From the IMG/VR virus record IMGVR_UViG_3300015301_000001, positions 1 through 40,567 of that record: DNA of 40,567 nucleotides. One strand, written 5' to 3'. The position numbers were made by a program, and so were the translations under genes. Shown piece after piece: positions 1,904 to 40,567 of this stretch. The stretch comes from a virus. The notes beneath the pieces were generated by a model that was not told the DNA's origin, did no database searches, and was given only the letters and a program-made list of their open reading frames with translations. Within the stretch, counting starts at the first letter, position 1, and every line of letters starts with the position of its first letter.

Positions 1904-1936
1904 ACACCACAACCACTTCACAATCACTTCAAAACC

Positions 1937-2850: not shown

Positions 2851-4158
2851 ATGAATGAAGGACTAGATGCCGCCCTCGTGCTCGATACCGAGGGCGGCAA
2901 GCCCAGCAAGCAATACCGCACCAGTCCCTACACGGTGCGCGACTACTGCGGGCTACCCTACGCCCAGCGCGTGGCCGTGGACGCTGCTTGCGATGCTCGG
3001 GCGGGCATTCAGCGCACCGCCTACGCAGACGATACCAGCGTGCAGCCCTACACCGTGGGCCGCGCTACCCAAAAAGTAAAAGGTGCCCAGCCGGCACCTT
3101 TTAAAAGCGCCCAGCAGGCGCAATTACCCTCAACCACTTCACAACCAATTACTGCCATGTCTACCGCCACCGCCTACGTACACCCCGCCCCCTCGCCGGC
3201 CCTGCACACGCTCAACACCCCCGAGGGCATCGACCACAACGCCGCCCACCCCGACAGCCTGGCTACCTACGCCACGCCTGCCGACCAGGAGGCGACCCAC
3301 GGGGACTTCGCTTTTACCCCGGCCGGGCTGCCCGAGGGCGCGCCGCTGGCTGCCCTGGCTGATGCGGTGGACCTCGCCAGCACGCCACCCGCCCCGCCCG
3401 CCCCGGTGGCGCACCCCGGCACGGTGTACGAAACGACCAATTACGACCTGTTTCACCTGCTGCCTGAGAATCGGCCCGTTGACAAGGCCCACGTTCGCAA
3501 GCTGATGGCCTTCATCACCGAGCGCAACCTGCTGCGGGTGCAGCCCTTGGAGGTGACCGCCGACATGGGCCTGATTGATGGGCAGCACCGCCTCGCTGCG
3601 GCTCGTGAGCTGGGCCTGCCGGTGTACTACAAGATTGGTGAGCAGCTGAGGGAGGAAGACATTACGGCCCTCAATATGGCCCGCAAGAACTGGCAGGCCA
3701 CCGACTACCTGCACATGTGGACCATGAAGCGCAAACCCGCTTACGTGGCCTTTACCGACTTCCGGCAGCGTCACCCGCGCATTAGCTTCTCCAACGCCAA
3801 GATTCTGCTTAGCGGCGGCACGGGCGGCTCCAACGCTGAGGAATTTCGCCGTGGGCTGTGGGATGGGGCCGATGATGCCGATGTGGCCCTGGCTGATGAG
3901 GTGGCCGCCCTCGTGGAGCGCATCGCCGACGAGGTGCCCACCTTCAAGCAGGCATTTCACACGGGCTTCGTGGGTGCCCTCTACCACTGCGCTACCCGCG
4001 TGGAGGGCTTCGACGCCAAGGAGTTGATGCGAACCATCCTAGCCCAGCCGCTGAGCCTACTGCCCTGCGCTAGCCATAAGCAGTGGCTGCAAATGCTGGG
4101 CAGTATCTACAACTACCGCAAGAACGAGGGTAACCGCATTCGCTTCAGCAATGACTAA
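2851..4158 (+). CDS. ParB/Srx-fold (ParB N-terminal nuclease-like) domain protein; possible internal start at 3157
   Basis: C-terminal half has PLEVTADMGLIDGQHRLAAARELGLPVYY, the ParB-like DGxHR motif. The frame is open from ATG 2851. A hairpin plus leader cassette precedes ATG 3157. Confidence 0.7.
   Translation: MNEGLDAALVLDTEGGKPSKQYRTSPYTVRDYCGLPYAQRVAVDAACDARAGIQRTAYADDTSVQPYTVGRATQKVKGAQPAPFKSAQQAQLPSTTSQPITAMSTATAYVHPAPSPALHTLNTPEGIDHNAAHPDSLATYATPADQEATHGDFAFTPAGLPEGAPLAALADAVDLASTPPAPPAPVAHPGTVYETTNYDLFHLLPENRPVDKAHVRKLMAFITERNLLRVQPLEVTADMGLIDGQHRLAAARELGLPVYYKIGEQLREEDITALNMARKNWQATDYLHMWTMKRKPAYVAFTDFRQRHPRISFSNAKILLSGGTGGSNAEEFRRGLWDGADDADVALADEVAALVERIADEVPTFKQAFHTGFVGALYHCATRVEGFDAKELMRTILAQPLSLLPCASHKQWLQMLGSIYNYRKNEGNRIRFSND
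3078..3102 (+). terminator. Perfect 10-bp hairpin AAAAGGTGCC-CAGCC-GGCACCTTTT inside ORF 2851..4158
   Basis: Perfect dyad with an A4 tract upstream and T4 downstream, read directly from the sequence. Confidence 0.45.
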
Positions 4159-4831
4159 GAAAGCTGACCGTGACACCCGCCACCTGGAGGCGGTGGGTGT
4201 CTACTACCAAACCGGCGACGAGGCCGCCCTCGGGCCGATGCTGGGCGAGCTGCGCGAGTTGGCGCTGGCTTACCTGCGCGGGCGGCTTCGGGTGCGTGAC
4301 ACTGAACGGGCCGAAGACATAGCGCAAGAGGCATTATTGAAATTGCTGGGCCGCTTGCAGCGCCGCAAATTCAAGATACCAGGCCGCCCGCCCGGCGTGC
4401 TGCTCTGCATCATCTGCCAGCAAAAATTTAGCGCGAGCGCCCGCCACAACCCTAGCGAGCCCAGCCGAAGCGAAGACCCCTTTTTGCTCCTGCCACCCAG
4501 CACCGCCACGCAGGCGCAGGAGCTACCAACCGGCGAGGTGATGGCCGCCGCCACGGCCGCGCTGAGCGCCGCCACGCAGGCCGTGCTTGCCCTTGACCAG
4601 CACGCCCGTGCGGCCGTGGTGCTACACTACTTCCACGGCCTCGACGCGCCGGCCGCCGCCGCGAAGCTGGGCATTGCCGAGTCAGCATTTCGGGCGCGCT
4701 TGCGCCGGGGCCTGGCTGACCTGCAAGCCTGGGGCCGCACAGTGCCCCGCCCCGCTGCCGAGGTGTACGCGGCCCTGAATGGGGTAGACAGTGGCGACCT
4801 GTTCCGTGAGCCGCTCAGGATGGTGGGCTAA
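4151..4831 (+). CDS. Phage-encoded sigma-70 family (ECF-like) RNA polymerase sigma factor
   Basis: Region-2-like ERAEDIAQEALLKLLGRL and region-4 HTH-like ARAAVVLHYFHGLDAPAAAAKLGIAESAFRARLRRGLADL. The start overlaps the upstream stop in ATGACTAA. Confidence 0.7.
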   Translation: MTKKADRDTRHLEAVGVYYQTGDEAALGPMLGELRELALAYLRGRLRVRDTERAEDIAQEALLKLLGRLQRRKFKIPGRPPGVLLCIICQQKFSASARHNPSEPSRSEDPFLLLPPSTATQAQELPTGEVMAAATAALSAATQAVLALDQHARAAVVLHYFHGLDAPAAAAKLGIAESAFRARLRRGLADLQAWGRTVPRPAAEVYAALNGVDSGDLFREPLRMVG

Positions 4832-25644: not shown

Positions 25645-25679
25645 CCCACTCCCTTCTCATCTTTTTTCTGCTTTCTGTT

Positions 25680-26803: not shown

Positions 26804-26850
26804 AGGCCCGGCCGCACCGGCTGGGCCTTTTTCTTTTCTCCCTTTTTTTC
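26804..26850 (+). terminator. Intrinsic terminator after the capsid gene
   Basis: AGGCCCGGCC-GCACC-GGCTGGGCCT stem followed by TTTTCTTTTCTCCCTTTTTTT. Confidence 0.8.
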
Positions 26851-26859
26851 TGCTTTTCT

Positions 26860-32802: not shown

Positions 32803-32815
32803 GTTGCCCCTGAAA

Positions 32816-32862
32816 ATAAACTTACACATTACAACAAATAATGTTGTAATGTGTAAGTTTAT
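32816..32862. promoter_or_regulatory. 47-bp palindrome (21-bp perfect arms, 5-bp centre); candidate HigA operator
   Basis: ATAAACTTACACATTACAACA / TGTTGTAATGTGTAAGTTTAT verified base by base. It abuts the -7 box of higB. Confidence 0.6.
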
Positions 32863-32866
32863 GTGC

Positions 32867-32874
32867 TACCTTTG
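32867..32874 (+). promoter_or_regulatory. Bacteroidota-type -7 promoter box TACCTTTG for higBA
   Basis: Exact TAnnTTTG, 4 nt before ATG 32879 and 13 nt before ATG 32888. Confidence 0.5.
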
Positions 32875-33181: not shown

Positions 33182-33247
33182 GGGGTGAGTAGTACCCGGC
33201 TCCACTATCATACCGCCGCATCAATCACTTCAGCCACCACCACTACA

Positions 33248-34299: not shown

Positions 34300-34537
34300 T
34301 GTTTTAGCTGGGCGCATCGGCATGTTTTACCTATGTTTTACCCAGGTAAGCATAAAGGCCCGCTAAGTGCTTGACTTAGCGGGCCTTTATGTACTCATGT
34401 TAGAGGTAACGGGCGTACTTCGCACTGTGACACAGGCCCAGTAACACGCCCACTGTGTCACGAATCTAGGGCGTTTCTGCTGAATTACCCGAGTCTTCCG
34501 CCTCCGTGTGGCGGTTTTGTTTTACCCCTGTTTTACC
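34300..34537. other. Candidate attP region (arm-type repeats, long hairpin, core-like repeats)
   Basis: TGTTTTACC at 34323, 34334, 34518 and 34529, plus TGTTTTAGC at 34300. An 18-bp perfect hairpin at 34351..34391. CACTGTGACAC at 34423 and CACTGTGTCAC at 34451. The region is adjacent to int. Confidence 0.5.
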
Positions 34538-35833
34538 AGCGCCCAGGGCGGCGTACACGGTGCGGGCGGCGGCGTCTACCTCGAAGGTATCATGGTCGCG
34601 CAAATAGACCTCCGTGGTGCTCGTGCGCTTGTGGCCCAGCAGCCCGCCGGTGGCCCGTATGTTGCCGGCCAGCGCCCGCTCGCCCAGCGTTGCCAGCGTG
34701 CGCCGCGCTACGTGGCTGCTCATTTTCTTGTCGATGCCCAGGCGCGTCATGCACCGCTTGAGGTTGGCGTTGATTGACGAGGTTTCCCGGCGCGTGATTA
34801 CCAACTGGGCACTGGGGTGCAGCTTCTCAAAATCGGCCGGCAGGTAGGGCAGTATATAATCGCCTGGCTTCGGCTTGCCGATGGCCGGCAGCAGCGAATC
34901 AAGTAGGGCCGTTAGTTCCGGGGTTTCCTCCACGTCCTTCTCGTGGCCGCCCTTGTCCATCACGAACTTGAGCCGGCCGTGGGCGCGGTCCTTCCATTTG
35001 AGGCGCAGGATTACACCGATACGCGAACCGTGGGCGTAGTGCTGAATGAAGTACACCACGCGCGCCAAGTGCTGCCGAGGTGGCAGGGGCACGTTCTCGA
35101 AGTCGATTACCTCCCCTTGCTCCAACCACACCCGCTTCGTTTTGCCGGTGGGGTAGTCGTAGTACTGCATGGGGTCGTCCTGCGGCTTCATCTTCTTGGC
35201 GCGGATGGCATCCGTTATAAAGATGTGCAGCGTCTTGAGGTTCTTGGCGGCCGTGCTGGGGGCGTTGCCCAGCGTGCCCAGCAGGTAGCCCTCGTACTTT
35301 TTGACCAGCTCGGCAGTCAGCAGGGGGAAGGGCAGGGGCTTCGGCTTGCCCTTGCTGTCGGTGCCGTGCCAGTTGGCGAACTTCTTCACCACCGGCCGGC
35401 GCACGTCGATGGTGCCCTGCGCCAGCCCCGTGGTGGCCTGCCGTTTGGCGTGGGCCTCATCGACCAGCTTCTGCTCAGCTGCGAGCCGCTCGTAACAGAA
35501 GGCGATAAAGTCGGGCGCGGCGGGGTCAATGTCGCCGTTGCGCAGGGCCGCCTTGAGTTGGTCGGCACCCCACCGCGGATTCTCCTGCGCCAACGCCTGC
35601 GCCCGGTCATGCCAGCGCAGCAGCGCGCTATTGTGGGCATCGTGCAGGCGCTCAGACGTGCGAACCCAGTTTTTAGTTAATAGGCTGGCCTTGGGGTTCC
35701 AATGCTTCTGAGACAAAGAAATACCCGTGTTTTGGTAACGAACAACGCGGTCGGCGATTATACGCAGGCGCACATCATAAAGCCCGTCACTGTCGGCCTT
35801 CGCGGCTAGAATCAGTTTGAAGGTGGCGGGCAT
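34466..35833 (-). CDS. int: Tyrosine recombinase / phage integrase (Bacteroidota type with N-terminal arm-binding domain)
   Basis: N-terminal FKLILAAKADSDGLYDVRLRI and SAM-like middle region. The C-terminus has SHVARRTLAT...LLGHKRTSTTEVYL, matching the R-H-R-Y catalytic pattern. Confidence 0.9.
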   Translation of the reverse strand: MPATFKLILAAKADSDGLYDVRLRIIADRVVRYQNTGISLSQKHWNPKASLLTKNWVRTSERLHDAHNSALLRWHDRAQALAQENPRWGADQLKAALRNGDIDPAAPDFIAFCYERLAAEQKLVDEAHAKRQATTGLAQGTIDVRRPVVKKFANWHGTDSKGKPKPLPFPLLTAELVKKYEGYLLGTLGNAPSTAAKNLKTLHIFITDAIRAKKMKPQDDPMQYYDYPTGKTKRVWLEQGEVIDFENVPLPPRQHLARVVYFIQHYAHGSRIGVILRLKWKDRAHGRLKFVMDKGGHEKDVEETPELTALLDSLLPAIGKPKPGDYILPYLPADFEKLHPSAQLVITRRETSSINANLKRCMTRLGIDKKMSSHVARRTLATLGERALAGNIRATGGLLGHKRTSTTEVYLRDHDTFEVDAAARTVYAALGAGKTGVKQNRHTEAEDSGNSAETP

Positions 35834-35849
35834 GGTTGCAGTATTCTCA

Positions 35850-35857
35850 CAAAGTTA
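35850..35857 (-). promoter_or_regulatory. The -7 promoter box TAACTTTG for int
   Basis: Exact TAnnTTTG on the minus strand, 16 nt upstream of the int ATG, within an AT-rich spacer. Confidence 0.5.
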
Positions 35858-36177
35858 TTTCTCAGACTATCAGGAGCTAGTAAAATGCAATAGCCCCAAG
35901 CGTATGTAGTTGATATGTGGATTGCATCTATTGCGTTGTGACCTGCTTCATTGTGGGTACATTTTACTATTATTTTTAGCATTACCTTCGCTACACGCTT
36001 CTATTATACTTAGCACTCCTACCACCTTTCCGCAATGCCTGCACGTCCTGAGCCCAGTATTGAAGCTATTTGCGCGGCTGCGGCCGTAGTTGAGTACATC
36101 GCCAACCCAAAGCAGCCGGGGCTTATTGTGCGCCCCAAGGGGGATAAGTCGCCGGCCCAGCTACGCGTCGGCGCTAA

Positions 36178-36708
36178 CTAGCCTTTATCTACGCGCTCCT
36201 GAAGCGCCGCGAGCTGCTCCTGTAGCTCCTTGACCACGGCGGCAGTATCGGCCACCGTTTGCAATAAGTCCATCCCTGGCAGCGCCGGGGGTGCGGGCTT
36301 GTGCGTCTTCCTGTTAGCCGCCGAATAAGTCGGGACTATTTGCCCGTGCTGCTCGACTACATCCCCCCTCACCAGGCCGGGGCTCGGGGGCTCGTGCGCC
36401 GTTAAATTTTCAGGGAAAAGTTCGGCGGCATTATACGACAATCTTTTTTGTGTGTCAGCGTCCGGCGGCGTCGGTTTGAGCATTTCACCCTCGCCAAGCA
36501 GCAGCCACGATGTACTGACTTGCGGATATGCCACCAGGATTTTGCGCACCATATCAATACCGGGCTTATTCTTCCGCTCGCTGAAAAGGTCGCTAATCAT
36601 GCCTGCGCTCACGCCAATCTTGAGCGAGAAGCGCCGCTTCACCCCCTTCTCGTAGTGGTCAATCAGTAAATTAATCCGCTGATTAATAGGGTCTTGTGTG
36701 TCGGACAT
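36178..36708 (-). CDS. CI-like phage repressor (HTH)
   Basis: RFSLKIGVSAGMISDLFSERKNKPGIDMVRKILVAYPQVSTSWLLLGEGEM matches the phage CI-repressor HTH pattern (...WLLxGxGxM). The gene is divergent from the early operon. Confidence 0.75.
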   Translation of the reverse strand: MSDTQDPINQRINLLIDHYEKGVKRRFSLKIGVSAGMISDLFSERKNKPGIDMVRKILVAYPQVSTSWLLLGEGEMLKPTPPDADTQKRLSYNAAELFPENLTAHEPPSPGLVRGDVVEQHGQIVPTYSAANRKTHKPAPPALPGMDLLQTVADTAAVVKELQEQLAALQERVDKG

Positions 36709-36763
36709 GCGCAATTCAGTAAATTTATTCGCGGTTTAGTAGCTTCGTATCGTGCGCTGCGTA

Positions 36764-36771
36764 TACCTTTG
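36764..36771 (+). promoter_or_regulatory. The -7 promoter box TACCTTTG for the rightward early operon
   Basis: Exact TAnnTTTG, 44 nt upstream of ATG 36816, followed by a G-free CAA-repeat leader. Confidence 0.55.
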
Positions 36772-36815
36772 CAACACCAACAACAACAACAACCGAAAGA
36801 TAAGGCAATCAAACT

Positions 36816-37043
36816 ATGGCCGATACCCAAAATCCCCCAACCATGCGCGAAGTGCTGGGAAAGGGCTGGATGACGCCGCTAGCTCTGAGCGGCGGCCCCA
36901 AAGACTCCGCAGCCCTTTCGCGCCTCGTCAACTACGAGCACACCACGAGCAAATACTGGCCGGCTGTCGAAGCCCTCGCCAAGACTGTCAACCCCGAGGG
37001 CTTCGCCCGCTGGGAGGCCGCCCGCTTACCGCAAGCTGCCTAA
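36816..37043 (+). CDS. First early gene (Cro-like by position), hypothetical
   Basis: 75-aa ORF divergent from the repressor gene. It supersedes the N-terminal part of track ORF 36752..37531. Confidence 0.6.
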   Translation: MADTQNPPTMREVLGKGWMTPLALSGGPKDSAALSRLVNYEHTTSKYWPAVEALAKTVNPEGFARWEAARLPQAA

Positions 37044-37081
37044 TCCTTTTCCTCCACACACTTCACAACCACTTCAACCTC

Positions 37082-37531
37082 ATGCGCCCTAACGCATCAA
37101 TTCCGGCCCCCTTGGTGCCTACGCTGCCCGACCTGTTTAATAAGCGCCGCCGCCACAATGCCACCGAGCTACAAGGCGGCGACCAACTGCACGCCACCAG
37201 TTCCTTGCTGGGCTTCAAACGCGGCGCGGTGCTGCCTATCTACGGCTACTGCGTCCTGACTGATGAGCGCGGCCAAGTCTACTCGGTGCGCGCCTACGTG
37301 CGGCCCGTGAGCATGGACCACGCCGTGGCCTTCGATAGCCGCGAGGCCGTGCGCTACCCCTCCAATGGCCTGGGCACCCAGCAAGAATATTGGTTCGGTG
37401 CCTACCTGATGTACCTGACCGAAATCGACCTGACCGACTACGCCGATTGCCTGCGCCTGGAGCGCCTCAGTGCCCGCGTGCTGCCCCTGCTAGTCGAAGC
37501 CACCGAATACTCCTACGTCGAAGCCGCCTAG
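37082..37531 (+). CDS. Hypothetical early protein
   Basis: ATG 37082 is preceded by the conserved tandem CACTTCA leader. Confidence 0.65.
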   Translation: MRPNASIPAPLVPTLPDLFNKRRRHNATELQGGDQLHATSSLLGFKRGAVLPIYGYCVLTDERGQVYSVRAYVRPVSMDHAVAFDSREAVRYPSNGLGTQQEYWFGAYLMYLTEIDLTDYADCLRLERLSARVLPLLVEATEYSYVEAA

Positions 37532-37535
37532 CGCC

Positions 37536-37844
37536 ATGCCGGTCATTGCTTTTATATCAGTCGAAGAACATGAGGCAGCTATTAGCGGCTTGCGGGCTGA
37601 GTTCCGCGATATGCTGAGCGCCTACGTGACCGACCACGAGCAATGGGTGACCACCGAACGGGCCGCTGAACTAGCCGACATCTCCCGCTCCACCCTTGTG
37701 AAGTTCGCCCGTGCCTCGGCACCCGATACGAAGCAGGAGGGGCGCATTACCTACAAAAAGGAGGGTACTAAATCCCTCTACTGTCGCAGTAGCTGCATCG
37801 ACTACAAGCGATTAAAAGCCGGCCGCCCGGCGCTGGCGGCATAA
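37536..37844 (+). CDS. HTH DNA-binding protein (excisionase/MerR-like)
   Basis: WVTTERAAELADISRSTLVKFAR helix-turn-helix. Confidence 0.55.
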   Translation: MPVIAFISVEEHEAAISGLRAEFRDMLSAYVTDHEQWVTTERAAELADISRSTLVKFARASAPDTKQEGRITYKKEGTKSLYCRSSCIDYKRLKAGRPALAA

Positions 37845-37881
37845 AAAAAGGAACCCCGACCACTTCACCTGTCGGGGTTCC
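37843..37881 (-). terminator. Intrinsic terminator functional only on the minus strand
   Basis: 11-bp perfect stem GGAACCCCGAC/GTCGGGGTTCC. The run of 7 A at 37843..37849 reads as a T7 tract after the stem on the minus strand. There is no T-tract on the plus strand. Confidence 0.6.
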
Positions 37882-37918
37882 CAATTAGCCAGCCCGCCCC
37901 TAAGCGAGCCAACCACTT
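37843..37918 (-). ncRNA. Candidate ~75-nt antisense/trans-acting sRNA carrying two anti-leader motifs
   Basis: A minus-strand -7 box lies upstream and a U7 terminator downstream. The 5' GAAGUGGUUGG and the loop AGGUGAAGUG are complementary to the AACCACTTCA(CC) early-gene leaders. Confidence 0.35.
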
Positions 37919-37923
37919 CGGTG

Positions 37924-37931
37924 CAAAGATA
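37924..37931 (-). promoter_or_regulatory. The -7 promoter box TATCTTTG on the minus strand (no CDS downstream)
   Basis: Exact TAnnTTTG, seen as CAAAGATA on the plus strand. Confidence 0.45.
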
Positions 37932-37960
37932 GACAGCCAACTCACAACCACTTCAATTTT

Positions 37961-38425
37961 ATGAAAATCGCCACCGCCACCACCGCCCCCGATTTCGCCG
38001 CTATCAAGGCCGTTGCCTCTGTCGTTGACCTCAACATGGAGGCCCGCAAGCTGGCCCGTTTGCGCCTTGAGTTTGGCGCGCTTTATCAGCAGTATCAAGA
38101 CGTGCTGCAAGCCGACGACGAAGGCATGGAGGTGACTATTACCATCCGCAGTACCACCAAAACGCTCAAGTTGCGGGACACCGGCCTTGACTATTTCAAT
38201 ACGGGCGACTACTACCAAAATGTGGGCACCTACCTCGACCACTTGCAGAAGCAAATCATAGAGCTACACGAGAAGGCGCAAACCACGGGGCTTGACAAGG
38301 GCGGAAGCGCCGCCGACCAGCAAGACCAAGCTATGGGCGTTCACGCCTTGGCTCTCTGCCTGCCTGAGCAGCCCACTACGGCTGAACCTGTATTGCACAC
38401 CAGCCGCGCCGCCCGCGCCGCCTAG
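37961..38425 (+). CDS. Hypothetical early protein (paralog A)
   Basis: Preceded by the tandem leader. Shares MK..T.TAPDF, L.HL and ALxxCLP features with the next gene. Confidence 0.7.
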   Translation: MKIATATTAPDFAAIKAVASVVDLNMEARKLARLRLEFGALYQQYQDVLQADDEGMEVTITIRSTTKTLKLRDTGLDYFNTGDYYQNVGTYLDHLQKQIIELHEKAQTTGLDKGGSAADQQDQAMGVHALALCLPEQPTTAEPVLHTSRAARAA

Positions 38426-38468
38426 CCTTCCTTTTTTAATTATTCAATTGCTTTTCAATCACTTCACC

Positions 38469-38990
38469 ATGAAAGTTAATAAAACCCCCGCCGCTGCTAC
38501 TGCCCCCGACTTCGGCCACGCCACCATCCCACACTTCGGCCACGGCTACGAGAATAATCTTAATTACGTGCTGGCTGAGCAGCACCGTGAACAGTACCTC
38601 GCCCACTACATCACAATGCAGAAGGTGAGCGCAGCCTTCATTGAGGGCATCCAATCCGTGACCCTGAACACCCCGAGCGGCAGCGTTACCGTGGCCCTGT
38701 ACAGCAGCACCGGCGAAGACCTGCATAAGCGGGCGGGCAATCTGTACACCGACCTCTCCGAAGTAATTGGCGCGCGCCTGGCGCACCTGGAGCGGCTCAT
38801 TGCCCAGCATGAAGAGGACTCTCGAAAGGAGGAAGCCGACGAGCGCGAGGGTAAGGGCCGCCGAGCAGACGCGCTCACCTTCTGCCTGCCCATGCGCAAG
38901 ATGAGCGATGCAGAATACGACGCCTTGCCCCCCGAGGCCCAGCGCGCACATCTGCATTACGGCGCTATGGTACGAGACGAAGCTGCCTAG
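38469..38990 (+). CDS. Hypothetical early protein (paralog B)
   Basis: ATG 38469 is preceded by CAATCACTTCACC and lies in frame within track ORF 38292..38990. Confidence 0.65.
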   Translation: MKVNKTPAAATAPDFGHATIPHFGHGYENNLNYVLAEQHREQYLAHYITMQKVSAAFIEGIQSVTLNTPSGSVTVALYSSTGEDLHKRAGNLYTDLSEVIGARLAHLERLIAQHEEDSRKEEADEREGKGRRADALTFCLPMRKMSDAEYDALPPEAQRAHLHYGAMVRDEAA

Positions 38991-39002
38991 CCCACCTAGA
39001 GG

Positions 39003-39028
39003 GGGTCGGCCCAGATTTGGGCCGACCC
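39003..39028. other. Perfect 11-bp hairpin GGGTCGGCCCA-GATT-TGGGCCGACCC upstream of the initiator gene
   Basis: Dyad read from the sequence; no U-tract on either strand. Confidence 0.4.
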
Positions 39029-39093
39029 AGGGGGTACGCTCAAATCTGAGCACACCCTACCACTAGGCTGCCCACCGCTTACCCACCCGCCCT

Positions 39094-40083
39094 GTGACGC
39101 ATCTTGAGTATTTCCTTTTTTTAGAAGAGCGCGACCAGCATTGCGAGCTGTCGGGAAACGACTATAAAGTTTTCCATAAGCTCGTGGGCATTGCTAAAAG
39201 TGCTGGCTGGCCGACAACGTTCGCCCGGTCAGATGCCTCCCTAAAAAAGGTCTGCAACATTCAAGAAAATACGATTCGGGAGAGCCGGAAGCACCTGGAG
39301 GCGGCGGGGCTTATTACGACTACTCAGACCGGGAAAGGCCGTAATGCGGCCACTGTTTACCAGTTAGTAAATGCCTCAATTTTTGAGGCATTACCCAAAA
39401 AGAATACCGCAAAAATTGAGGCATTACCTGAGTCGAATACCTCAAAAATTGAGGCAATAGAAGCGGTAAATACCTCAAAAATTGAGGCAATACCCGAATT
39501 AAATACCTCAAAAATTGAGGTGCTTACTATAGATAATAAAGAAGTAGTAGATGCGGCTAGCGCCGCCACCCCCCCCCAAGATTTGATTTCTGAAAAATCG
39601 GAAATCAAAGAGCCAACTGACAGCCCTAAAAAGCCAGCCGGCAAAAGAGCAAAGGGAGCCAAGGCCAGCCCCGAGGACATCGCGGCCCTTGCCTTACCTC
39701 ACCCCGGCCAAAAGTTTGCCGAACTGTGGGCCGGCTTCGTGGCTGGCCCCAAGCAGCAAGGCAAGTCACTACTCGCTTTCAATCTGCTGCTGGGAAAGCT
39801 AGCCAAGTACGCTGAGGGCTTCGCCATTGTGATGCTGGAGAAGGCTATCGAAAGCAATTGGTCGGGCGTGGAATACGAAAGCACGCCCGACGCCTACACC
39901 AAATGGCAAGCCCAGCAGGCCCGCAGCCACGCCCAGCCTGCCCAGGAGCCCACGATTGACCACGCCGCCCTATTCGGCTACGCTCAACCCGCTGCGGCTG
40001 GCCTCGCAGAAGCCCGCAGCGGCCCCGACTACCAAGCCTACCTAGCCCAGCAAGCGGCTAAAGCCCAAGTAACCACTTCATAA
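39094..40083 (+). CDS. Replication initiator / replisome organizer (winged-helix N-terminal domain) containing the origin iterons
   Basis: N-terminus LSGNDYKVFHKLVGIAKSAGWPTTF...ESRKHLEAAGLITT is wHTH-like. There is an in-frame 11-aa repeat NTSKIEA(I/L)PE. GTG start. The helicase gene lies downstream. Confidence 0.65.
   Translation: MTHLEYFLFLEERDQHCELSGNDYKVFHKLVGIAKSAGWPTTFARSDASLKKVCNIQENTIRESRKHLEAAGLITTTQTGKGRNAATVYQLVNASIFEALPKKNTAKIEALPESNTSKIEAIEAVNTSKIEAIPELNTSKIEVLTIDNKEVVDAASAATPPQDLISEKSEIKEPTDSPKKPAGKRAKGAKASPEDIAALALPHPGQKFAELWAGFVAGPKQQGKSLLAFNLLLGKLAKYAEGFAIVMLEKAIESNWSGVEYESTPDAYTKWQAQQARSHAQPAQEPTIDHAALFGYAQPAAAGLAEARSGPDYQAYLAQQAAKAQVTTS
39370..39525 (+). repeat. Five iterons (33-bp period), each AATACCTCAAAAATTGAGGCAAT-like with an internal 6-bp dyad
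   Basis: Copies start at 39370 (centre inverted), 39403, 39436, 39469 and 39502. An AT-rich stretch follows at 39521..39555. Confidence 0.85.
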
Positions 40084-40094
40084 TTACTTCGCCC

Positions 40095-40567
40095 ATGTCC
40101 ACTTCCTTACCGCTACTGCTGCCGGCCGTTGATACCGGCCCCGTAGAAGCCCAGGCCGAGGCCACCGCCACGACGCTGTACAATACCCTACTGCACCTGC
40201 ATACCTACCGGGAAGAGCAGCGCGGCCGTGCCGACCTCACGCCCTGGCAGTTTGAGCACCTGCGCAAAATTGAGAACGTGCTTGATGCCGTAGCTGCCGA
40301 CAAAATCCAGACCGCGCAACTGCTCACCGTCTTGCACGCCAACGTCGAAGGCCTGAACGGTCAGCTGCACGCGGCCATCAACCGGGGGGATGCCCCGGCT
40401 TGGATGCTGAACCCCAACGCTACCCCGGCCGAGGTGCTGGCCGAGCGCGAAGCCGACCCCGTGTATCGGCTGGGCTACGTCCGTGGCTACCGCCGTGGGC
40501 TCGACTTGGGGCAGCAGCAAAACGAGCGCCTGCTGAGTCTGTACGCGCAGTACGCCATCCTAGTGCC
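40095..40567 (+). CDS. 5' part of a hypothetical protein continuing at 1..274 (about 207 aa in total)
   Basis: ATG 40095 is preceded by AACCACTTCATAATTACTTCGCCC. The frame stays open to the window end. This ORF is absent from the track because there is no stop inside the window. Confidence 0.7.
   Translation, partial: MSTSLPLLLPAVDTGPVEAQAEATATTLYNTLLHLHTYREEQRGRADLTPWQFEHLRKIENVLDAVAADKIQTAQLLTVLHANVEGLNGQLHAAINRGDAPAWMLNPNATPAEVLAEREADPVYRLGYVRGYRRGLDLGQQQNERLLSLYAQYAILV
40445..40567 (+). repeat. Terminal direct repeat, copy B (identical to 1..123)
   Basis: Base-by-base identity. Confidence 0.95.

Follow-up and report, generated by a model that had tools for sequence, protein, structure and literature searches.

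A predicted leftward antisense small RNA gene, with a conserved promoter box, fold and terminator, in the early region of temperate Hymenobacter-type phages

The stretch of DNA considered here, referred to as the window, comprises the 40,567 nucleotides (nt) of the IMG/VR virus record IMGVR_UViG_3300015301_000001, the whole genome of a temperate phage, and the locus in question is the spacer between two rightward (plus-strand) early genes, one of 102 amino acids (aa) at 37536..37844, whose TAA stop lies at 37842-37844, and the other of 154 aa at 37961..38425. On its minus strand, this spacer carries a predicted small RNA (sRNA) gene of 77 nt (37843..37919, 5'-GAAGUGGUUGGCUCGCUUAGGGGCGGGCUGGCUAAUUGGGAACCCCGACAGGUGAAGUGGUCGGGGUUCCUUUUUUU), the first nucleotide of which was placed by a promoter box rule and the last by the terminator. 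Read leftward, its elements are a sigma-A type -7 box, TATCTTTG, at 37924..37931 (consensus TAnnTTTG; CAAAGATA on the plus strand), a 5' seed, GAAGUGGUUGG, at 37909..37919, complementary to the leader motif CAACCACUUC, a hairpin of 13 base pairs (bp) at 37886..37915 (hairpin 1), delimited by folding and alignment, with a UAGG tetraloop and many G-U pairs, a terminator hairpin at 37850..37881 with a perfect 11-bp stem and a 10-nt loop, AGGUGAAGUG (37870-37861), and a U7 tail at 37843..37849 which overlaps the TAA stop of the 102-aa gene. Read on the plus strand, the same layout is ...GGCGGCA, TAA, AAAAA, GGAACCCCGAC, CACTTCACCT, GTCGGGGTTCC, CAATTAGCC, where the stem arms GGAACCCCGAC (37850-37860) and GTCGGGGTTCC (37871-37881) are 100% complementary and enclose the loop CACTTCACCT (37861-37870). 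An A7 tract (37843-37849) precedes the stem and no T tract follows it (CAATTAGCC). An initial annotation, made from the letters of the window, had described the exact -7 box, the perfect stem followed by seven U, and a terminator able to work leftward only, and in these respects every element and coordinate was found to be correct. The hairpin with its T7 tract (-20.6 kcal/mol) ranks among the strongest terminator-like hairpins in a scan of both strands of the window, although a standard terminator scan overlooked it, its loop limit being 8 nt and the loop 10 nt.

Relatives were found by tracing homologs of both flanking genes to contigs. The spacer module is present in seven further lineages, drawn from metagenomes, one metagenome-assembled genome (MAG) and IMG/VR: L007 (Logan SRR13512898), L008, L009 and L010 (JGI 3300055143 and others), L012 (Ga0308164), L016 and L017 (NCBI MAG GCA_050954845.1), L040 (Logan SRR30758778), L048 (IMG/VR 3300028586_000753) and L004 and L005 (JGI 3300055084), the last two without a clear promoter. 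It is absent from L001, L002, L006, L011, L014, L015 and L039. Among the pattern searches, the exact spacer pattern CAACCACTTCGNNGCAAAGATA was found in one metagenome contig (L012) and in none of the IMG/VR or GTDB genomes, and of 23 matches to a seed-plus-box pattern in IMG/VR, 22 were due to chance and one, L048, was real. The loop pattern CCACTTCACCTGNCGGG gave 20 matches in IMG/VR, all of them rejected as chance occurrences in unrelated coding DNA. A blastn search of the phage GenBank collection with positions 36000-40567 gave no match, and neither did the initial passes with the 154-aa family in IMG/VR, JGI metagenome contigs and GTDB genomes. The L016 contig, JBPBQK010000032.1, is labelled Janthinobacterium lividum and carries a Bacteroidota-type integrase together with a Hymenobacter-phage gene set; the binning or the label of this MAG may be wrong.

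The promoter box is conserved among the relatives. The sequence TATCTTTG is exact in the window, L007, L008-10, L012 and L016/17 despite differing flanks, and in L040 and L048 the box is TACTTTTG, with TA and TTTG kept and both 'n' positions changed, the TAnnTTTG consensus being retained at the module in seven lineages, the window included. In relatives, TATCTTTG recurs as the -7 box of the principal early promoters, within divergent regions of the repressor/cro type (L001 2717, L004 3415). In Flavobacterium psychrophilum the sigma-A box spans -12..-5 (PMC9723704), a rule which would place the +1 at 37919, 5 nt past the box G, and make the RNA 77 nt long. The initial annotation had predicted an RNA of about 75 nt; a structured RNA is upheld, with a predicted length of about 77 nt. 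Within the window, TANNTTTG is not enriched (7 found against 11.3 expected), and in a single genome the pairing of a box with a terminator could be due to chance (p roughly 0.1, by our own estimate); since both are conserved in relatives, chance is ruled out. No operator-like repeat, of the kind proposed below at 36663 and 36716, overlaps the sRNA promoter. As a separate observation, L004 has three close plus-strand TAnnTTTG boxes (TACCTTTG, TAACCTTTG and TATCTTTG) at 3839-3869, just 5' of the leftward terminator hairpin, so that in this lineage the hairpin sits in a long, A-rich 5' untranslated region (UTR).

The terminator is present in all the lineages that bear the module. Its stem shows compensatory changes in L008/L012 (AGAGCCCGGC/GCCGGGCUCU), and the hairpins of L004, L016, L040 and L048 contain G-U pairs which are valid solely on the minus strand. 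In L004 the plus-strand fold is no better than that of shuffled sequences (z = -0.1), whereas the minus-strand hairpin reaches z = -3.6. The tail is U6-U7 in L008, L012, L004, L040 and L048. The loop is identical in the window, L007, L008 and L012, and different in L004, L016, L040 and L048. Conservation of the box, the terminator and the seeds had been named beforehand as a check to be made in related phages; the box consensus and the terminator are indeed kept, and the 5' seed co-varies with the adjacent leader in L016, while the loop seed differs in the four lineages just listed.

Folding also assigns the structure to the minus strand. The minimum free energy (MFE) of the 77-nt RNA is -40.4 kcal/mol, in two hairpins, against -26.5 kcal/mol for the plus strand; for the latter, MFEs were used and the energies of 'mirrored' structures were disregarded, since these included non-canonical pairs. 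The 81-nt stretch 37843-37923, read on the minus strand, has z = -4.84, and the minus-strand fold has z = -4 to -6 for every lineage folded. A consensus fold of four sequences gives -33.1 kcal/mol and 25 pairs on the minus strand, compared with -13.5 kcal/mol and 13 pairs on the plus strand. Hairpin 1 alone reaches -17.7 kcal/mol (z = -4.4) on the minus strand and -5.5 kcal/mol on the plus strand, and its 12-bp core is common to three architectural variants, namely the window type, L040 and L004. Across the five distinct sequences of this core, all 60 cells of the pairing table (100%) can pair on the minus strand, with both sides changed in three pairs and one side changed in six, all of them wobble-compatible, and not a single broken cell; when the partner columns were slid as a control, pairing fell to 20-52%, and on the plus strand 35 of the 60 cells could pair (58%, our own count from the table). 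The lineages are few and partly related, a point that tells against the interpretation, and the shuffle-based covariation statistics are therefore to be taken as indicative only.

The conservation of the RNA body exceeds that of its surroundings. Between the window and L007 it is identical at 77 of 77 positions, where the two flanking genes show 87% and 77% identity at third codon positions, and between L008 and L012 it is identical at 71 of 73 positions, with 69% identity at adjacent third codon positions. Since the identity of the RNA body lies above that of third positions, the constraint on the spacer is much stronger than at neutral sites. The segment from the box to the ATG is less conserved, the box and the leader motif excepted. 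Searches for known structured RNAs returned no match at gathering score in Rfam 15 over the whole window (37700-38100 gave sub-threshold, terminator-driven scores, the best being 24.1 against a 55-bit cut-off) and no tRNA or tmRNA, and a covariance model of the sRNA detected no second copy in the window or in the spacer-less relatives. The box, start, fold and terminator, conserved or covarying in relatives, and the G-U pairs valid on the minus strand alone bear out the earlier proposal of an independent minus-strand unit with its own -7 box and leftward-only terminator, and it is highly probable that the predicted RNA is transcribed independently, from a promoter and to a terminator of its own.

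The 5' end of the RNA points to a target. In all the box-bearing lineages (window, L007, L008, L012, L016, L040 and L048), the predicted +1 falls on the sequence (U)GAAGUG(G/U)UUG, even though the RNAs differ in length (45 nt in L048, 58 nt in L016, 71 nt in L040 and 72-77 nt in the others) and hairpin 1 is found in some and not in others. In the window, the seed GAAGUGGUUG is complementary to CAACCACUUC at 37945-37954, and this complementarity is conserved or co-varying in six loci. This leader site, CAACCACTTC (copy B, 37945..37954, plus strand), situated 6 nt before ATG 37961, is the best-supported target site. It is a direct repeat of 37910-37919 (copy A), the template of the seed, and the promoter lies between the two copies. 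At the six loci the seed and the adjacent leader form duplexes of 11-13 bp, 2-13 nt 5' of the AUG, with energies of -16 to -20 kcal/mol. In L016 the two have changed together, GGUUG to GUUUG in the seed and AACC to AAAC in the leader, both copies being AAACACTTCA instead of AACCACTTC, and in L008/L012 a C to U change in the leader retains a G-U pair with the seed. The gene to the right is also constant in most lineages: the 154-aa family directly follows the sRNA in the window, L007, L012, L016, L040, L048 and L004 (33-87% identity), that is, in seven of eight lineages, so that sRNA and leader travel together; the exception is L008, where the downstream gene is unrelated to this family.

These results can be joined in a single explanation, to which we assign a probability of roughly 0.6: the RNA would be the product of a real, free-standing sRNA gene of about 77 nt, placed in the spacer between the 102-aa and the 154-aa genes and read leftward against the early operon, and would act by antisense pairing on the rightward early mRNA via the adjacent leader. 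According to it, the host sigma-A RNA polymerase would start at about 37919 from TATCTTTG, as the conserved promoter suggests, and a change of the box from TATCTTTG to TATCTCCG would abolish the RNA. The transcript, to judge from sequence, folding and covariation, would fold in two hairpins and end at the hairpin and U7 tail that overlap the upstream stop codon. Through its 5' end, (U)GAAGUG(G/U)UUG, which complements the G-free leader belonging to the right-hand gene, it would pair with this leader a few bases before the AUG. Bacteroidota ribosomes initiate without Shine-Dalgarno pairing and depend on unstructured leaders, and leader pairing would keep such a ribosome off an otherwise unstructured leader. 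In addition, the full-length RNA is perfectly complementary to the intercistronic part of the read-through mRNA, and the resulting duplex may be cut by RNase III as with lambda OOP. The CACUUCA copies in six other leaders could be secondary targets in trans. Since no operator-like repeat is seen at the sRNA promoter, the RNA may, speculatively, also be produced during lysogeny and dampen early expression that is leaky or comes from superinfecting phages.

Nevertheless, several points weigh against this explanation. As regards the promoter, no recognisable -33 element at constant spacing was found in the window or the relatives, and L004, which has both hairpins and U7, is without a good box, its best candidate being TAACTTTC. 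As regards the terminator, the tail of L016 is U-poor and weak (AUUCGUUCU). L006 has an 87% homolog of the downstream gene without the sRNA. With respect to the seed, copies A and B are direct repeats and their co-variation could stem from duplication or gene conversion, not from selection for pairing. Moreover, RNA nucleotides 5-17, which comprise most of the 5' seed, form one arm of the 13-bp hairpin 1 in the window, where opening nucleotides 1-10 costs 7.5 kcal/mol, although the lower stem is weak and rich in G-U pairs; the seeds of L016, L040 and L048 are unpaired at the 5' end of the RNA. The initial annotation had held that the RNA displays the anti-leader sequence twice, at its start and in the terminator loop. 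The first display is borne out by the position of this sequence at the +1 in all box-bearing lineages, with the qualification that the seed is half buried in the window, whereas the match in the loop is specific to the lineage of this phage.

The partly buried seed and the direct repeats of leader sequence in the spacer would also be expected if the RNA were purely cis-antisense, of the OOP type, acting on the intercistronic region or on the 3' end of the 102-aa mRNA through RNase III or transcriptional interference, the leader resemblance of its 5' end and loop being a by-product of a spacer that arose from leader duplication. That the RNA is perfectly complementary to the read-through early mRNA over 77 nt speaks for it, as does the early-right position, 5' of the O-like initiator and helicase genes, which recalls lambda oop, a leftward RNA of 77 nt in the early-right operon whose action depends on RNase III (PMC5415839, PMC12197685). 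However, such an RNA has no need of a +1 placed on anti-leader sequence across RNAs of differing length and architecture, nor of a single-stranded 5' seed as in L016, L040 and L048, and its overlap with the upstream coding sequence is limited to the stop codon; we therefore regard both this mode of action and a by-product origin of the leader resemblance as unlikely. The strand itself could be questioned, in that the hairpin and the CCACTTC repeats might act within the early mRNA, in processing or stability or as factor sites, with an incidental minus-strand box. The motif is strictly plus-strand genome-wide, the hairpin of the window is equally perfect on that strand, and the plus-strand promoters of L004 lie just 5' of the hairpin and place it in a 5' UTR. 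Yet the G-U pairs of hairpin 1 and of the L004, L016, L040 and L048 hairpins turn into A-C mismatches when the plus strand is read, the plus-strand fold of L004 does no better than shuffled sequences, the A tract lies upstream with no U tract downstream, and it is on the minus strand that the -7 box consensus is conserved, all of which makes a plus-strand element very improbable.

Of slightly lower standing still is the proposal that the module is a leftward terminator serving as an insulator, which would shield the regulatory genes and the P_R region from stray antisense transcription, the box being a weak or spurious promoter and its product without a role. L004 keeps the terminator without a clear box and, as stated, TANNTTTG is not enriched in the window, and both points speak for it; on the other hand, over more than 8 kb rightward of the module, counted across the circular junction, there is no evident leftward gene or promoter, and an insulator does not need the strong purifying selection on the box-terminator region or its covarying hairpin. 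There remains the protein-coding possibility. The statement that no minus-strand coding sequence exists in the region needs correction in so far as a mechanical minus-strand open reading frame (ORF) of 129 aa (37865..38254) overlaps the sRNA and ends in the hairpin loop, and the hairpin with U7 might then be the terminator of a real gene. The frame is open in the window, L004 and L006, and its stop in the window lies inside the loop. It is, however, antisense to a conserved plus-strand gene, its substitutions favour third positions of the plus frame (25 against 15), as does the G+C content at third codon positions, its C-terminus differs in every relative, and L008, with an unrelated downstream gene and therefore an unrelated antisense ORF, nevertheless has the sRNA module. 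The ORF was consequently rejected as a shadow of the plus-strand gene, in agreement with the substance of the earlier statement, and a minus-strand protein gene is extremely improbable.

A wider role of the predicted sRNA is suggested by the distribution of the leader motif. The window holds six copies of CCACTTCA, all on the plus strand, against 0.95 expected, and at least six copies were seen in none of 100 shuffles; five of them lie 5' of ATG starts, and the remaining one forms the hairpin loop. The motif had been described as sitting 2-5 nt before the ATG, which applies to degenerate second copies, the exact ones lying at 5-16 nt. When the whole window was scanned with the seed, the two cis sites scored best and were followed by four plus-strand sites (-17.3 to -17.4 kcal/mol) located 5-16 nt 5' of the real ATGs 1937, 3157, 37082 and 37961, and weaker sites precede 38469, 40095 and 33248. 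The candidate targets in trans are the leader of the 149-aa gene (ATG 37082), with two CACTTCA copies at 37056..37076 (seed energy -17.4 kcal/mol) and a 22-nt leader 86% identical to that of 37961, the leader of the 300-aa gene (ATG 1937), with two motif copies at 1911..1931, the motif of the ParB-like gene (ATG 3157) at 3132..3141, the motif copies of the 207-aa gene (ATG 40095) at 40071..40091, and the motif AATCACTTCA of a helix-turn-helix (HTH) regulator gene (ATG 33248) at 33223..33232, all on the plus strand. The best match of the terminator loop is the leader AATCACTTCACC (38457..38468, plus strand), directly before ATG 38469: the loop AGGUGAAGUG is fully open and pairs with AUCACUUCACC directly before this AUG at -14.8 kcal/mol, in a duplex that ends at the start codon.

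The CACTTCA leaders are confined to a subset of genes, the other G-poor leaders of the phage being without the motif, and in relatives without the sRNA the motif was not found in the leaders visible. Of the pairing with a leader shared by six genes that the initial annotation had put forward, the enrichment of the motif and the location of seed sites at start regions hold good, but covariation is documented for the adjacent leader alone and the loop is not conserved, differing in L004, L016, L040 and L048. That the RNA is a trans-acting anti-leader riboregulator, whose seed, together with the loop in this lineage, would pair with a shared CACUUCA 2-16 nt 5' of early AUGs, is thus put forward tentatively, the balance being somewhat against it, and the same reserve applies to the conceivable regulon, which would comprise the 149-, 154-, 173-, 207- and 300-aa proteins, the ParB-like protein and the HTH regulator. 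If it were true, a whole early or replication-linked regulon would be switched on or off at Shine-Dalgarno-independent initiation, and RNA-based immunity against related superinfecting phages with the same leader would be a possibility. Near two of these leaders, clusters of the repeat TTAAAAGGT(G/C) occur on both strands at 1754-1905 and 3070-3110 (exact or one-mismatch copies at 1769, 1793, 1867, 1873, 1893, 3076 and 3096), in the spacers just 5' of the CACTTCA-leader genes with ATG 1937 and 3157. Some copies form hairpins flanked by A and T tracts, resembling bidirectional terminators, and the clusters may be protein-binding sites or terminators.

OOP, Sar, c4 and P4 CI are the classic phage antisense regulators of lysis-lysogeny, and the examples known so far belong to phages that infect other phyla. 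OOP extends over the 3' part of the cII coding sequence, by about 50 nt, whereas the predicted RNA described here overlaps only the TAA stop of the 102-aa gene, lies two genes from the O-like initiator and has a conserved 5' seed that matches the leader of the next gene; neither sequence nor Rfam similarity to OOP was found (OOP's own Rfam model was not checked), and host phylum and promoter type are different. Sar is a true cis-antisense RNA over the ant ribosome-binding site, while the +1 of the present RNA (37919) would lie 42 nt 5' of ATG 37961 and the start region would be reached via a repeated 10-nt motif. As for c4 of P1/P7, it is processed from a same-strand operon transcript, unlike the RNA predicted here, which lies on the opposite strand with a separate promoter and terminator. 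The likenesses are of a general kind. Like OOP, it would be a leftward RNA of about 77 nt in which two stem-loops form, with its own constitutive-type promoter and an intrinsic terminator (PMC5415839, PMC12197685), and it lies within the rightward early operon of a temperate phage, 5' of the replication genes and antisense to early mRNA. Like Sar of the P22 immI region, it would be a small antisense RNA from an intercistronic promoter, aimed at a downstream start region and facing convergent transcription (PMC12197685), and like c4, which represses a nearby downstream gene through short repeated complementary elements displayed in its structure, it is a phage RNA with elements of this type and is encoded upstream of its presumed target (PMC12197685). 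It resembles OOP, Sar and c4 in kind and is a member of none.

From the side of the host, the TAnnTTTG -7 box, the intrinsic terminator and the size are those of Bacteroidota sRNAs of the GibS and DonS class from Bacteroides (45-130 nt), although these are chromosomal, unrelated in sequence, and none is phage-encoded or aimed at phage early leaders. In B. thetaiotaomicron, a transcription start site together with a terminator is the signature of a high-confidence sRNA (PMC7366714); at the level of sequence, the present locus has the TAnnTTTG box and the intrinsic terminator of a canonical Bacteroidota sRNA gene, with a start site deduced from the box (PMC7366714). In a 2025 review of phage-derived sRNAs (PMC12197685), the word stems 'Bacteroid' and 'Flavobacter' are absent. 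The predicted sRNA gene of temperate Hymenobacter-type phages is a previously undescribed one, which extends the phage antisense-RNA theme and, if true, would be the first regulator of this kind to be reported from Bacteroidota phages. It constitutes an sRNA family supported by covariation, for which promoter, start, fold, terminator and a candidate target site can be stated to the base. Since initiation in Bacteroidota is Shine-Dalgarno-independent and takes place on unstructured leaders, its control could be studied directly with an RNA that targets a G-free leader by pairing. Furthermore, the promoter is flanked by two direct repeats, of which one templates the seed while the other is the target, a layout that illustrates how a trans-type seed can arise by leader duplication.

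As for the genomic setting, the window is circular or terminally redundant (about 40,474 bp): positions 1-93 are identical to 40475-40567, which indicates an assembly of this type, with the gene at 40095 running on at position 94, and an identical contig of 40,474 bp is present in Logan SRR6986446. Its G+C content is 61%. To the left of the sRNA locus lie, on the minus strand, a Bacteroidota-type tyrosine integrase gene (34466..35833) and a gene for a cI-like HTH protein (36178..36714), followed by the rightward early genes (plus-strand starts at 36816, 37082, 37536, 37961 and 38469) and the O-like replication initiator gene (39094..40083, plus strand); beyond the circular junction come genes for a DnaB-like helicase, a ParB-like protein and a protein with sigma-70 region 4. 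The leaders of plus-strand genes (e.g. 37044-37081, 25650-25679 and 26830-26859) are G-free or nearly so over at least 30 nt and have no Shine-Dalgarno sequence, which fits the structure-free, Shine-Dalgarno-independent initiation of Bacteroidota.

The 102-aa protein shows a weak similarity to HTH_17, below threshold (E = 0.039), and has no relative in PDB. A homolog with 58% identity is annotated in Hymenobacter cheonanensis (Bacteroidota, Cytophagales). Its homologs stand beside the sRNA spacer in L007, L008, L012, L016 and L040, and without it in L001, L002, L011, L014, L015 and L039. The 154-aa family, which usually adjoins the sRNA, gave no match in Pfam or PHROG; it amounts to 24 clusters in 5.8 billion proteins, none of which bears a functional name (all are unnamed or 'hypothetical protein'). 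In the window it is present as tandem paralogs, at 37961-38425 and 38469-38990 (29% identity, E = 3e-7). An AlphaFold model of a family protein, of moderate confidence (pLDDT 64.7), shows the order helix, beta-hairpin, helix, for which Foldseek returned nothing at E <= 0.001, the sole resemblance being a weak one to a prefoldin-like helix-hairpin-helix (E ~0.09). Given so weak a resemblance, no function was assigned to the family.

Some other features of the phage deserve mention. Where the cI-like gene and the first early gene diverge, 27-nt direct repeats, TCAGTAAATT.A.T.CGC.G.TTA.TAG, at 36663-36689 and 36716-36742, with a weaker copy at 35847-35873, are candidate repressor operators. Within the O-like initiator gene, direct and inverted repeats of TTGAGGTAT / AATACCTCAA at 39400-39650 probably mark iterons or an origin, by analogy with the lambda ori inside O. 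The protein with sigma-70 region 4 (Pfam Sigma70_r4_2, E = 1e-8), whose gene at 4151-4831 closes the early operon, may direct the transcription of late genes as a sigma factor. Finally, a perfect 16-bp AT-rich palindrome, CTTACACATTACAACA...TGTTGTAATGTGTAAG, lies at 32814-32864, adjoined at 32867 by a plus-strand TACCTTTG box, an arrangement suggestive of a promoter under operator control where the structural region ends.

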